A DNA stretch of 64,000 bases from Candidatus Marinacidobacterium sp. (GCA_965204755.1 OZ242011.1:1472001-1536000), one strand, 5' to 3'. Counted from the first letter of the stretch, positions 44,081 through 49,510 are shown. The notes: a model not told the origin generated them from the sequence alone. Program-made: numbers and translations.

Positions 44081-45990
44081 ATGAAGAAGAACCGCTCGAA
44101 CCGGCAGTGGCGGTGGGAAACCGTCGACCCGAATGTGGGCGCTGCCGGCGGCGCCTTCGCGAAGGTGTTTCGCAACCTGGAGGAGAAGAAGCCCGGCTTT
44201 CTGGAGGAAGGCGCTCCGGGGTTGAACGCTTACCTGATGGCTCGAGAGGTCATCCAGAACGCATGGGACGCCGCCCTCGAGTTGCGGAAACCTGCCCCCC
44301 CCCCCCCCCCGCAAAAAGTCTTCCAGATTTCTACATCCAGTTCGACTTTCGTGTGCTGAGCGGTTCGGAAAAGAAGTCGCTCATCGCCACACTGGACTTG
44401 GGCGGGCATGTCGAGCGGCTTTCGCAACTCGAACGACAGACGATCGGTCTCGATGACGATCTCTGTCTGGATCATCTCGAGAGCAACGAACCGCTCCCGG
44501 TTCTCGTCATCGAGGAGACGGCAACGACCGGGATGTTCGGGCCGTGGAAGGGCGCCAAGTCGAAACTCTTCAAGGCTCTCGCCGCCCTCGGCATCCAAGG
44601 CAAGGACGATGCGGATGCCGGGGGTGCCTTCGGTTTCGGCAAGGCGGGCCTGATTCGCGGTTCGGCCCCGCGGATCGTGGTGGCCTACACCTGCTTCCGG
44701 GAACAGATGGACGATCCAGGAGTTACCCGTCGCCTCTTGGGAATCACCTATTGGGACGCACATTCACTGGACGACCGAGACTTCACCGGAATGGCGCGTT
44801 GGGACACGAACTCCGATGAGCCGCGACCGTTCGAGAACGACGAGGCGGACGGTATCGCCGAGGAACTGGGGCTGAGGCTTCGCCACCCGGACAACGACGA
44901 GGACTTCGGCACTTCGTTCTTGATCCTGCAACCCACCGTCGATCCGGGGAGGCTGGAGACCGCGATCAACCGCTCTTGGTGGCCGGCGCTGGAAGACACG
45001 ACGCTCGGCTTCCAGGCAGCGATCCGGCCGCCCGGCGAAGACGCGCGTTCTCCGCGACCGCAACAGGACGCCGACCTGCAGCCCTTCGTCCGTGCTTATC
45101 GGCAGGCGACCTCCACCGCAAAGTTCATCGGCAAAGTTCCCAACCTCCACTCTTTTGATATCTGGGACTCGTCCCGACTACTGGGAAAACTCGTACTGGT
45201 CACCGACCCGGACGGTTGGTCGTTCCAGGACCCGAGTTCGTCATCGGATGAGAGTCTCGTCGCGCTGATGCGCAACACGCGGATGGTCGTGGAATATCGA
45301 AAGTTGGGGTTCCGGGAGACCACTCCGATCGTTCGCGGCGTCTTCGTGGCGGACGACGGCGTGAGCGGTCTTCTCCGGGAAACGGAACCCGTCGGGCACG
45401 ATGCTTGGTATTCGGGTGGTGACGAGAACGATGCCAGCGAAGAGGCTCGTGCTGTCGCAGACTGCATCCTGAAGAAAATCAAGGATCGCGTTCGCAAGGT
45501 TCGCAAGGACTTGGCGCCGCCCGCACCGAAACCGGAGTTCGTGAGGCTCCCGGAGTTCGACCGCATCATGCGGCGCATCTTGGGCGGCGAGGGCCGAAAA
45601 CAGGGGCCGACCGCGCAGAGGCGTTTCGTACGGTTGGATGGAATCGAGAGCGAGCCCGAGATCGTTGGCCACGGGCTCATCCGTACCACCGGGTCCGCGC
45701 AGTTCGGTCTGAGCGAAAATTTTCCGGTGTCCCGCCCCGGCGCACGCGTTGCCATCCAAGTCCGTTTCGTGGTACTCGAGGACGGTCAGGCCCGCGGCGC
45801 CAATAGCGTCCCGGTCGCAGTCGCGCCTCCCGATGGCTTCGAAGTCGCCGACGACGCCGATCCCCACCGCTTCACGGGCTGGTTGGCTCGCGGCGACGAA
45901 CACGGCTTCTCCTTCCAAACGGATCCTTACGACGAGGATTGGACCGGTCGGCTCTACATCGAGGCCGAATTCCTTTCCGAGGACTCTTGA
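44081..45990 (+). pseudogene. GHKL (HATPase/MORC-like) ATPase split by a C16 tract (phase-variable OFF state or assembly slip); about 636 aa when in frame
   Basis: Frame 44081 carries the N-box AREVIQNAWDA. After the C-tract the other frame carries the G1-like IEETATTGM and G2 GGAFGFGKAG. C14 or C17 would fuse them. Confidence 0.8.
44295..44310 (+). repeat. Poly-C16 homopolymer (slipped-strand contingency locus candidate)
   Basis: CCTG-C16-GCAAAAAG; the longest homopolymer I saw, located exactly at the frame switch. Confidence 0.9.
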
Positions 45991-46976
45991 ATCGAGAACG
46001 CAAGACCGTACGCCCGTTTCGGGGCGTAGCGCCGTCGCTGACCAGAGCCCTGCGGAATGCGGTTCTTCGGTTCGGAGAGAAACAGGTCACCGCGGGCGCT
46101 CGCCTCCAGTGGGACGACTTCGAGACCTACCGAGACCAAGACATTTTGCTGGAGTGGAGCGCGGACGACGAGTCTCCGACCTTCTTGTCCGGGCTGAAAC
46201 AAGGCTGCCGCGAGTCCGGTCTGCCTCCCGACAGTCTGGCTCTCGTCGTCACGGCCACCAGCCGGTATCTCGGTATCGTGGATGTCCTCTTCAACTGTCC
46301 TCTGGACGACTTGGATGAACTCGAACCTGCCCTTGACCTTCGGGCCGAGAAAACCGACGCGGCGGCTTGGAGGACATGTGTCCGAGGTTGCCGGGTGGAC
46401 GCGTATCTCCTGCTCGCCCGCAAACTGGAAGAACGGCCTCTTCGCCCCTGGAGGAAGGGAGTGTGGCTGTCGAGGGCGAGTTTCACGGTAGCGACAGACT
46501 ACACGGAGAGTCTGTTTCGACCGAGGAAACTGGACGACAAACAGCGGAAGCGATTTCAACTCTCGGTTCAGGCGCTCCGCTATGTCCATCTTCCGGAACC
46601 CGTCTGGGAGGAATATGACCCCGAAGAGCCGCCGGAGGTGTACTTGGACGCCGAGATCATGGCGCAGATCGCGGCGAAGCCGAAAGCGCTGCCGAGCCGC
46701 CTGGCCCAAGCGGAACTCGCCTATGTGTTCCTGCGTGGCGTCCTCACCGATGCTCACATGAACCGAAAGCAGTGGCGCGGGCGCATGTGGCGGGACATCG
46801 CGAACACACTGCTCGGCAAGGCCCTTCGCGCCATCGCCGGGAAGAACGCGCCCGTCGCCGAGTGCGCTCGATGGATGGACAGACTCGGCAGTGACGGTGG
46901 CTTGGAGGGTGTCGTGTCGGAGTGCGAGGGCGTCACCGAAATTCGCGCTCTTCTTCGCGACGCGTTTCGGGAGTAG
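45987..46976 (+). CDS. Hypothetical protein (329 aa), gene 2 of candidate defence cassette
   Basis: TTG overlapping the ATPase TGA (TTGA); globular composition, lower GC; no recognised motif. Confidence 0.75.
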   Translation: MNRERKTVRPFRGVAPSLTRALRNAVLRFGEKQVTAGARLQWDDFETYRDQDILLEWSADDESPTFLSGLKQGCRESGLPPDSLALVVTATSRYLGIVDVLFNCPLDDLDELEPALDLRAEKTDAAAWRTCVRGCRVDAYLLLARKLEERPLRPWRKGVWLSRASFTVATDYTESLFRPRKLDDKQRKRFQLSVQALRYVHLPEPVWEEYDPEEPPEVYLDAEIMAQIAAKPKALPSRLAQAELAYVFLRGVLTDAHMNRKQWRGRMWRDIANTLLGKALRAIAGKNAPVAECARWMDRLGSDGGLEGVVSECEGVTEIRALLRDAFRE

Positions 46977-46981
46977 CCACG

Positions 46982-47704
46982 ATGCGATACAAGACACTCC
47001 CGCTCCAGGAGTGTCGGCGTTTCGCCCGCGAGCGACTCGCGGGAGAGACGCCGGACATCGGTACGGGCGTTGTCTTCGCCGGAGCCGGCGAAGACCTCGA
47101 CATAAAGCCGATCCGCAAGGCCGCCAAGAAGATCGTCCGTCTCGTCGACGACAAGGCGAAGGATCGGGATCGAATCGAGGGGAAGGCCGCTGTTCTCCTC
47201 TACGACGGCCTTGCCGGAGTCCCGGTCGACGCACTCGACGATCCGGGTTTCTGGCGCTACCTGAGTGTCGGATTGGCGTTTTGGGGCTTCATCGCCTGGA
47301 GGGAGCACCGCGCACTGCAGAAGGGCGACAACTTCCTCAAGTATGTCGACGGGAAGAAGGCGACCGAGTGTGTCCTTCCGCGCATGTACATGCGCGTGTT
47401 GGCGCTCGGCGCCCGGGACGACCCGAAGGGACAGTTCCGGGAACTGGCTACGGCGCTTCCGGCCGCGACGGACTTCTGGCGGAGTCATGTGGTCCGGGTG
47501 CAGACCGCGGCGTCGCCGGCCGTCGTTCGGGCGTTCGCGCGAATGCAAAAAGAGAGGCGTCTCAACACCGACGATCTCCGGGAGTTCGCGAAGGACATTT
47601 CCAAGATCCGTTCGACGGTCGTTTTGAGCATCTACAACGACGAGGAAGCCGACATCTTCATCCGAGACCTTCGCGCGAAGTTCGACCGCCGGAAGGCCGG
47701 ATAG
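46982..47704 (+). CDS. DUF6339-like protein (240 aa), gene 3 of cassette
   Basis: SD GGAG; EGKAAVLLYDGL..ALDDPGFWRYLS..FWGFIAWR..LPRMYMR pattern resembles DUF6339 (recognised by eye). Confidence 0.55.
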   Translation: MRYKTLPLQECRRFARERLAGETPDIGTGVVFAGAGEDLDIKPIRKAAKKIVRLVDDKAKDRDRIEGKAAVLLYDGLAGVPVDALDDPGFWRYLSVGLAFWGFIAWREHRALQKGDNFLKYVDGKKATECVLPRMYMRVLALGARDDPKGQFRELATALPAATDFWRSHVVRVQTAASPAVVRAFARMQKERRLNTDDLREFAKDISKIRSTVVLSIYNDEEADIFIRDLRAKFDRRKAG

Positions 47705-49071
47705 TGAGTCTTGCCGGCGCCGCCCGGCAGTCCCGTGTGGTTGCCGCGAAGGGAACGCTTCGGGAGGATTATCGGCACAACGGGAGTGTCCGGCACTCGC
47801 TCGCGCTCGGCGCGCGACGGGGCCTGAGCGCCGATCTGGGAGAGCCGGAGAGCGCCCCTCGCTGCAGCGGCGATCCCAAGGGCGAGTGGTGGCGCGCCTA
47901 TCTCCGCGGCCGCCGACCGGTCACAGCGAACCCGAGCGGGAAGACCCTGCGCATCGCCGACCTGTTCTGCGGGGCCGGGGGACTCGCGCTCGGGGTTCGC
48001 CAGTTGTGCGACGAAGCCGGTCTCGAGCCGGTCTGGGAGTTCATCGCCGACCGAGACGACGGCGCGGTGGCGGTGTACGCGGGGAACCACCCGGTGCGGC
48101 GGGTCTCGAGGGAATCGGTGTCCGACCTGCTGGACTACCGGGTGCGGCGGCGGTCGAGCGGGGCCGAGTTCGTCTATGAATCGGAGTTCCTCGACCCCGA
48201 GTTGCGCAAGGCGGTGCGCGGCGTGGACCTGGTGATGGCCGGGCCGCCGTGCGAGGGGCATTCGAACCTGAACAACCACACGCGCCGGGACGACCGGCGG
48301 AACCACCTCTATCTCGCGGTTCCGGCGTTCGCGGTCGCTGCGGGGGCGCGGATGGTGCTCATCGAGAATGTGCCCGCGGTGGAGAACGACCGCAGCGGAG
48401 TGGTCGAGGCGGCGCGTAACCTGTTGGAGGCTGCCGGTTATTCCGTCGAAACCGGCGTCCTCGCCGCCGACGCCATGGGATGGCCGCAGACGCGGCGGCG
48501 GTTCTTCCTGGTGGCTCACCGTTCCCGCGCGCCAGTGCCGTTCGCGGCGATCCGTGAGGGTCTCGCCGACGATGCTCCGCGCCCGCTCTGGTGGGCCATC
48601 GAGGACCTGGAGGAGACCGGCGGCGACGATCCGCTGCATCGCGTGGGGGAACTCAGCGAGGAGAACCGCGCTCGTATCGCGTGGCTGTTCGACAACGACG
48701 CTCACGAACTCGACCTCTCCGAACGGCCGGCCTGCCACCGGGACGGCACGACCTACTCGGCGGTGTACGGGCGTATGCACCGGGACCAGCCCGCGCCGAC
48801 GATCACGACCGGTTTCCTGACACCGGGCCGCGGCCGGTTCGTGCATCCGACCCGGCGACGGACGCTGACCCCGCGCGAAGCGGCCCGGCTGCAGGGTTTT
48901 CCCGACACCTACCGGTTCGCTCCGGAGGCCGACCGAGTCCCCACCCGGTCGCAACTCGCGAAGTGGATCGGGGACGCGGTGCCCATGCCGCTCGGCTACG
49001 CCGCGGCGCTCTCCCTGCTCGCCCCCGAGTTGGGCCGGGCGAGCCCGCGACGGAAACCGCAGCACGCGTGA
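47704..49071 (+). CDS. dcm: DNA (cytosine-5)-methyltransferase
   Basis: DLFCGAGG (I), GPPCEGHS (IV), ENVP (VI), PQTRRRFFLV (VIII), LTPREAARLQGFPD (IX), IGDAVP (X); GTG overlaps upstream TAG. Confidence 0.95.
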   Translation: MSLAGAARQSRVVAAKGTLREDYRHNGSVRHSLALGARRGLSADLGEPESAPRCSGDPKGEWWRAYLRGRRPVTANPSGKTLRIADLFCGAGGLALGVRQLCDEAGLEPVWEFIADRDDGAVAVYAGNHPVRRVSRESVSDLLDYRVRRRSSGAEFVYESEFLDPELRKAVRGVDLVMAGPPCEGHSNLNNHTRRDDRRNHLYLAVPAFAVAAGARMVLIENVPAVENDRSGVVEAARNLLEAAGYSVETGVLAADAMGWPQTRRRFFLVAHRSRAPVPFAAIREGLADDAPRPLWWAIEDLEETGGDDPLHRVGELSEENRARIAWLFDNDAHELDLSERPACHRDGTTYSAVYGRMHRDQPAPTITTGFLTPGRGRFVHPTRRRTLTPREAARLQGFPDTYRFAPEADRVPTRSQLAKWIGDAVPMPLGYAAALSLLAPELGRASPRRKPQHA

Positions 49072-49510
49072 CCGGCGCCGGCGCCGGGCCGGCGCGGGAG
49101 GAGTCGGTCCCGGAGTCCGTTCGGCGGCGGATGCGGAATACGCCGCGGCGGGATACGCCGTTCGAGGTCGCGGTGCGGAAGCAGGCGTACGCGTTGGGCC
49201 TGCGCTATCGCGTGGACTGCGGCGTTCCCGGAGTGACCCGGGGACGGCCCGACCTGGTATTCAGCGGACGCCGGGTGGCCGTGTTCCTCGACGGCTGCTC
49301 TGGCACTCCTGCCCGATCCACCGCTCGGCCCCGGCCACGAACCGCGAGTGGTGGGCCGCCAAACTGCGGGCGAACGCCGACCGCGACGAACGCCACCGCC
49401 GGGAACTCGAGGACGCCGGATGGACCGTCCTCCGCTTCTGGGAACACGAAGATCCCGCAACCGTCGCCGCCGAAATCGCCGCCGCGGTTCGCGGGTCCCA
49501 ACCGGGCTGA
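49068..49510 (+). pseudogene. vsr: Very short patch repair endonuclease Vsr, frameshifted
   Basis: RRDTPFEVAVRK..GLRYRV..RPDLVF..VAVFLDGC then TC TGG CAC (one T missing from FWH); continues WHSCPIH..NREWWAAKLRANADRD..GWTVLRFWEHED to TGA 49510. Confidence 0.9.

Follow-up and report, generated by a model that had tools for sequence, protein, structure and literature searches.

We describe a five-gene cassette in the genome of a Candidatus Marinacidobacterium sp., located at positions 44081-49510 on the plus strand of a 64,000-nucleotide stretch of DNA (GCA_965204755.1 OZ242011.1:1472001-1536000; hereafter the window, at its full length), which is part of the assembly G000, a single 3.98-Mb contig that is 89% complete. 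We read the cassette as a probably phase-variable, divergent form of PDC-M33, an already catalogued phage defence candidate (PDC), and of paraMORC2, coupled to a methylase and lacking a recognizable nuclease. A homopolymeric C run in its ATPase gene, g1, is probably an on/off phase-variation switch. An earlier interpretation made from the DNA alone (the sequence-only reading) had proposed a candidate undescribed defence or restriction-modification (R-M) system at this locus. That novelty is not supported, since a PADLOC scan matched g1 to PDC-M33A and relatives of g3 to PDC-M33C, and the ATPase carries the hallmark of paraMORC2. The genes are co-oriented and coupled as that reading stated, with a TTGA overlap between g1 and g2, a 5-bp gap between g2 and g3, and TAGTG and GTGA overlaps at g3/g4 and g4/g5. 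The features are as follows:

44081..45990, + strand: g1, GHKL ATPase with S5 transducer and C-terminal beta-sandwich; PDC-M33A-like and paraMORC2-like; in the assembly its frame is broken at the C run
44295..44310, + strand: C16 run in the loop that follows the g1 N-box helix; probably a phase-variation switch, in frame at C14, C17 and C20
45987..46976, + strand: g2, 329 amino acids (aa), immunoglobulin (Ig)-like beta-sandwich at the N terminus and helical domain at the C terminus; by position the equivalent of PDC-M33B; likely an adaptor
46982..47704, + strand: g3, 240 aa, DUF6339-like and PDC-M33C-like; may read DNA or act as a cryptic effector
47704..49071, + strand: g4, intact C5 cytosine methyltransferase (PF00145) with a strongly conserved target-recognition region
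49068..49510, + strand: g5, vsr very-short-patch endonuclease (PF03852); accessory; frameshifted near 49298 in this strain

Relationship to Known Systems

The N-box REVIQNAWDA and the G boxes that had been recognized in g1 are present and conserved in 90 homologues, and the GHKL plus S5 architecture of the protein is common to MutL. As in paraMORC2, g1 possesses an N-terminal GHKL domain with ATP-binding motifs, an S5 domain and, late in S5, the ExxxH motif, whose E438 and H442 occur in 90/90 alignment rows and 12/12 distant homologues. The likeness to paraMORC2 extends to cytosine methylase and Vsr neighbours and to lateral mobility, as described in the available portion of PMC2292703; according to the same portion, most paraMORC2 operons include a superfamily II helicase and an endonuclease (Iyer, Abhiman and Aravind, 2008, PMC2292703), whereas the present clade lacks both and is likened to paraMORC2 by its domain and motif features. 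A candidate assignment of g1 to MORC proper was rejected, as its S5 strand reads L-V-A-L-h-R-x-P-R-M-V in place of the motif GhXhhpXXRhl, with an invariant Leu at the Gly position.

The closest catalogued system is PDC-M33 (models PDLC04582-04587), which likewise comprises three adjacent, co-oriented genes of the same size and order. The PDC-M33A model (PDLC04582) matches the g1 fragment of the window at E 4.4e-6, the intact homologue P0296 at 3.4e-8 and other homologues at up to 6e-26, all with partial coverage and read independently of PADLOC's own thresholds. The g3 family includes members matching PDC-M33C (PDLC04584-04587) at E 3.6e-9 to 0.02, window g3 itself giving no direct match, and an annotated DUF6339/PDC-M33C protein aligns with the g3 profile at E 2e-6. 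Neither window g2 nor its homologues match PDC-M33B (PDLC04583), with which g2 agrees in position and size. A distant trio matches A, C and, weakly, B, the B match being a single protein at E 0.054 that shows no significant alignment to the g2 profile. The cassette differs from PDC-M33 in that a C5 methylase is its near-constant fourth gene and that g1 carries slippery tracts. The PDCs are a set of 145 phage defence candidates identified by their location inside other defence systems (Payne et al., bioRxiv 10.1101/2024.01.29.577857); the accessible part of that text does not mention M33 by name, and our literature searches on PDC-M33 and DUF6339 found no paper.

Other systems resemble the cassette less closely. 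The genes MzaC and MzaD, which reportedly belong to the Mza system, were found neither in the locus nor in the genome, and no Mza model in the PADLOC scan matched g1. Druantia type II comprises a DruM methylase and the helicase-like core gene DruE; DruM2 is the best PADLOC model for g4 (E 3e-84), but the insertion contains no DruE-like helicase, none is conserved in 80 loci, and no other Dru match was obtained. A C5 methylase with catalytic motifs is likewise typical of type II R-M systems; as for a cognate endonuclease, g2 matches no nuclease family or fold, an absence that does not exclude one.

A Probable Homopolymer Switch in the ATPase Gene

The C16 run at 44295-44310 shifts the g1 frame and leads to a stop at 44359. 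Run lengths of 14, 17 or 20 yield products of 635-637 aa, while other lengths end in a stop after 91-125 codons. The sequence-only reading had spoken of a C17-repaired ATPase: the run indeed breaks g1, but a switch that varies in length explains it better than a plain error does. Among 30 C or G runs of at least nine bases in 1.47 Mb across 80 loci, 21 lie in g1, which makes up 10.6% of the bases, and nine in the flanks, including one just upstream of g1, with none in g2, g3 or the methylase; the nominal binomial p for this concentration, ignoring kinship, is 1.7e-14. The g1 tracts, either poly-C or poly-G, cluster at three coding sites (residues ~70-75, 110-125 and 315-330). The frame is broken by 13 of them and kept by seven, one lying at a contig end; the share out of frame is near the 2/3 expected for random lengths.

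When the six tract states are mapped on a tree of 77 rows, from which L081 and three short rows were omitted, 17 changes are needed, and gains are not separable from losses. Four site-and-base classes of tract can be distinguished, and therefore at least four origins are required; the chance that four independent origins within the cassette would all fall in g1 is ~0.03 (0.417 to the fourth). Length alleles are also found among close relatives. The cluster of window g1 at 90% identity (n = 13) comprises three full-length proteins (635, 642 and 642 aa), seven without the N-box (545 aa) and three N-terminal fragments (92, 95 and 96 aa), from which tracts of ~14 to 35 bases follow. Thus, g1 contains a frame-setting coding repeat with ON and OFF length alleles among close relatives, as in contingency genes, assembly error contributing some share of this variation.

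Sequencing run X2 (99% of words) yields a C17 contig, in frame, together with a loose end carrying eight more C, and in runs X4, X6 and X7 the contigs break at the C run; these comparisons draw on contigs, and X2 is possibly the source sample and thus not independent. Because X2 assembles C17, the OFF state of the window may be a one-base consensus error or a minority allele. Tract lengths among relatives vary by more than such an error or minority allele alone could explain.

Simple decay of g1 is very unlikely in our judgement. By a crude length rule g1 is broken in 26/75 loci, g3 in 3/69 and the methylase in 7/67, about half of the g1 breaks being located at tracts, while g2 and g3 are intact in 61/71 and 66/69 loci and the catalytic motifs are invariant. 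The g1 run lengths are, moreover, bimodal (13.6 per 100 kb at nine bases or more, 4.5 at 7-8), alleles differ by far more than one base, and tracts occur in records with both short-read and long-read style contig names, the platform being read from the names.

Phase-variable R-M systems (phasevarions) likewise depend on a simple repeat near the 5' end of the coding sequence, whose length alleles determine the frame, but in the portions of the literature consulted it is usually an adenine methylase that is switched, whereas here it is the ATPase and never the C5 methylase. It is conceivable that the trio g1-g3 is needed for methylation and that the switch toggles the 5-methylcytosine pattern, acting as an epigenetic phase switch instead of or besides defence. 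BREX-type methylation is multi-component, the trio is tightly coupled in translation to a methylase with a conserved target region, other tracts in G000 lie in methylase genes, and phase-variable methylases are common in other systems, according to the sources partly consulted. We nevertheless consider this quite unlikely, given that g4 has all the C5 motifs of a stand-alone enzyme, that no locus has a tract in the methylase gene, and that trios exist without an adjacent methylase.

Across the G000 genome, 37 C or G runs measure 14-34 bases, and no run measures 10-13. Those checked (27 proteins scanned) are located within or next to type III, type ISP and N6/N4 methylases, DUF4007, FN3/SusE-like surface proteins, a TonB receptor and glycosylation genes, which are the usual classes of contingency genes; example sites on contig C1 of G000 are 1553961, 2398758, 2446665, 2720960, 2079661-2085593 and 3126116. 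At 44349-44359 of the window, the stop of the C16 frame falls a few bases past a GTG in the main frame, where databases call a 545-aa product without the N-box; speculatively, re-initiation at this GTG could keep the downstream genes coupled when g1 is OFF.

Conservation of the Cassette, Its Methylase and Vsr

The linkage of the three-gene core with the C5 methylase is conserved, the order g1-g2-g3-methylase being kept in 65/68 loci with at least 4 kb downstream, which supports the view of the cassette as a conserved, mobile, R-M-like unit. The sequence-only reading had seen no recognizable endonuclease or helicase, and none is conserved beside the cassette in the 80 loci: separate nuclease or helicase genes, among them a PD-(D/E)xK gene in some lineages, adjoin the trio in a few lineages and are missing from most loci and genomes. 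In a few cassettes, modification-dependent nucleases of the Mrr, GmrSD and AspBHI families lie directly 3' of the methylase or Vsr (L013:15637-16485, L016:15021-16730, L024:6376-8217, L073:11714-12688, L076:4183-6000). Second, divergent trios, flanking or convergent, share one methylase with the first at L016:16763-20539, L047:14989-18844 and L087:1290-12729.

The identification of g4 as a C5 methyltransferase is confirmed by PF00145 (E 7e-38) and the presence of all C5 motifs; the PC and ENV motifs and residues across 341-392 are invariant in 47 rows. Its best solved relative is DNMT1 (E 8e-36), ahead of M.HaeIII (4e-26). Similarly, g5 is indeed a Vsr (PF03852, E 2e-12), with a second 1-base frameshift at ~49298 that the sequence-only reading did not report. 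Runs X4, X6 and X7 contain the extra base that restores the frame, and X2 lacks it as the window does; since the break is shared by the window and X2 and absent from the other three runs, it is probably strain-specific decay. As a cassette member Vsr is accessory only, present here and within 2.5 kb in 26/57 complete cassettes. This occurrence, together with the intact g2-g4 beside a broken vsr, makes it highly improbable that the trio serves Vsr as a dedicated MutL-like partner in repairing the T:G mismatches to which the methylase gives rise, as the GHKL plus S5 architecture of g1 and the MutL-Vsr cooperation cited in the available portion of PMC2292703 might suggest; a repair role would, in addition, not favour an on/off switch. 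Further C5 methylase matches on contig C1 of G000 lie at 1048715, 1860837, 2393026 and 2907806, three with a Vsr match nearby.

Proposed Mechanism and Its Alternatives

The structure model of g2 is an Ig-like sandwich with helices, its alignment holds no invariant column, and it matches no nuclease family or fold; the suggestion that it is a cryptic nuclease thus finds no support, and g2 is likely an adaptor. The DUF6339 likeness of g3 holds in part: window g3 matches PF19866 at E 6e-4 with 20.0 bits, below the Pfam cut-off of 23.2, and two homologues pass. Residues E66, W91, R107, W166 and R200 of g3 are invariant, and D87, R134, R138, D164, S168, H169, R172, R208 and N212 nearly so. Among longer homologues, three of P0218, P0237, P0262 and P0337 have C-terminal extensions of no assigned family and one is a g1-g3 fusion.

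We tentatively favour a methylation-gated clamp without a dedicated nuclease, a reading that we regard as quite possible rather than probable and in which we infer every step beyond the gene anatomy. The g4 methylase would mark self DNA, g3 would read unmethylated sites, g2 would link g3 to the tail of the g1 ATPase, and ATP-driven closure of a g1 dimer would hold incoming DNA or arrest the cell. Three observations favour it: most loci and genomes have no separate nuclease or helicase, g2 and g3 are kept intact, and switching is confined to the ATPase.

The main rival, which is somewhat unlikely in our view, is ATP-dependent restriction under the same switch, in which g3 (less likely g2) would hold a new nuclease site activated by the g1 clamp on unmethylated sites. 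It can draw on the acidic, S168, H169 and several Arg positions of g3 (E66, D87 and D164 among them), on the lack of any other nuclease conserved in the 80 loci, and on characterized GHKL defence proteins (Tiamat, VcSduA) that control nucleases, as the consulted parts of their descriptions indicate. The g3 profile, however, matches no solved nuclease, neither g2 nor g3 matches a nuclease family, g2 has the Ig-like model without an invariant column, and some lineages place a separate PD-(D/E)xK gene beside the trio. We give little credence to a guard or addiction role, whereby the trio would become toxic on loss of host methylation, through cassette loss or a phage methylase inhibitor, and cause post-segregational killing or abortive infection. 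The more frequent breakage of g1 than of g3 or the methylase is as for a costly component, and PDC-M33 is found embedded in other defence systems according to the portion of the source consulted, but no known toxin domain was found in the trio, and g1 is the longest gene, with about half its breaks at tracts.

Several observations weigh against the interpretation of the cassette as a switchable clamp of the PDC-M33 type. The loci are related, hence the binomial p values overstate the significance; long homopolymers are error-prone, so that the OFF state of the assembly may be a consensus error; and g1 is also disrupted by insertions and other frameshifts, which is compatible with decay. The conserved E, D and H residues of g3 could form an active site, and the second trios of L016 and L047 lack their own adjacent methylase, so that self-marking may be less strict than supposed. 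The window's own g2 and g3 match neither the B nor the C models of PDC-M33, a search for the methylation target motif of g4 identified none, and no phenotype is known for the cassette, nor for PDC-M33 in the texts searched.

A further extension of the clamp reading is unlikely: a nuclease-free bacterial immune or silencing machine in which a DUF6339 reader would guide a MORC-like, ATP-driven clamp to trap incoming unmethylated DNA and a DNMT1-like C5 methylase would license self. For this machine, sponge symbionts of several phyla would repeatedly and independently have evolved ATPase-only poly-C/G switches, such that part of each population drops the barrier, can take up foreign DNA and stays methylated. 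If a clamp without cutting is true, the cassette would be a prokaryotic parallel to MORC/DNMT1 silencing; if it is false, g3 becomes a candidate for a new nuclease fold. Tracts have arisen repeatedly in the ATPase gene but not once in the methylase gene, which indirectly indicates that the ATPase arm is both active and costly and marks it as the likely carrier of the phenotype. Relatives of g3 are widespread (819 at E<=0.001 after 50% clustering), and the family is catalogued, without a tested function in the texts searched. With four genes and no recognizable nuclease, the clade offers the simplest form for asking how an ATPase of the GHKL type, together with a C5 methylase, could protect a cell without a known cutter.

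Insertion Site and Genomic Context

The lower GC content of g1-g3 that had been noticed is real (0.62-0.63 against 0.71 for g4 and 0.70-0.75 for pckA/gpmA), as it is at third codon positions (0.73-0.80 against 0.94). The proposed insertion beside gpmA and the flotillin gene is upheld as well: the two genes are convergent neighbours at most ~0.3 kb apart in G008 and G003, and since they directly adjoin in these two same-family relatives, of five relatives examined, the cassette is an insertion. g1 is present in 3/40 relatives. The sequencing runs containing the stretch include sponge metagenomes, and the host is probably sponge-associated.

The same post-gpmA site in G001, of the same genus, holds a distant cassette (L006:9592-18387) in which g1 is 25% and the methylase 42% identical, with an insertion sequence within g3 and an additional 486-aa gene of no assigned function; its Vsr is ~78% identical, a pattern suggesting that the cassette has been replaced between gpmA and vsr. 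Upstream of the cassette in G005 (L005:13328-18678 region), a list of open reading frames inspected by eye contains a putative DUF1156-like methylase-type gene and neighbours. ACGT and AGCT are both extremely under-represented in the G000 genome, with 265 and 332 occurrences where 7147 and 7446 are expected. The cassette contains neither, against 13.7 and 7.9 expected, and has therefore been purged like the host genome, its lower GC notwithstanding; a same-family genome (L005/L007) avoids ACGT only.
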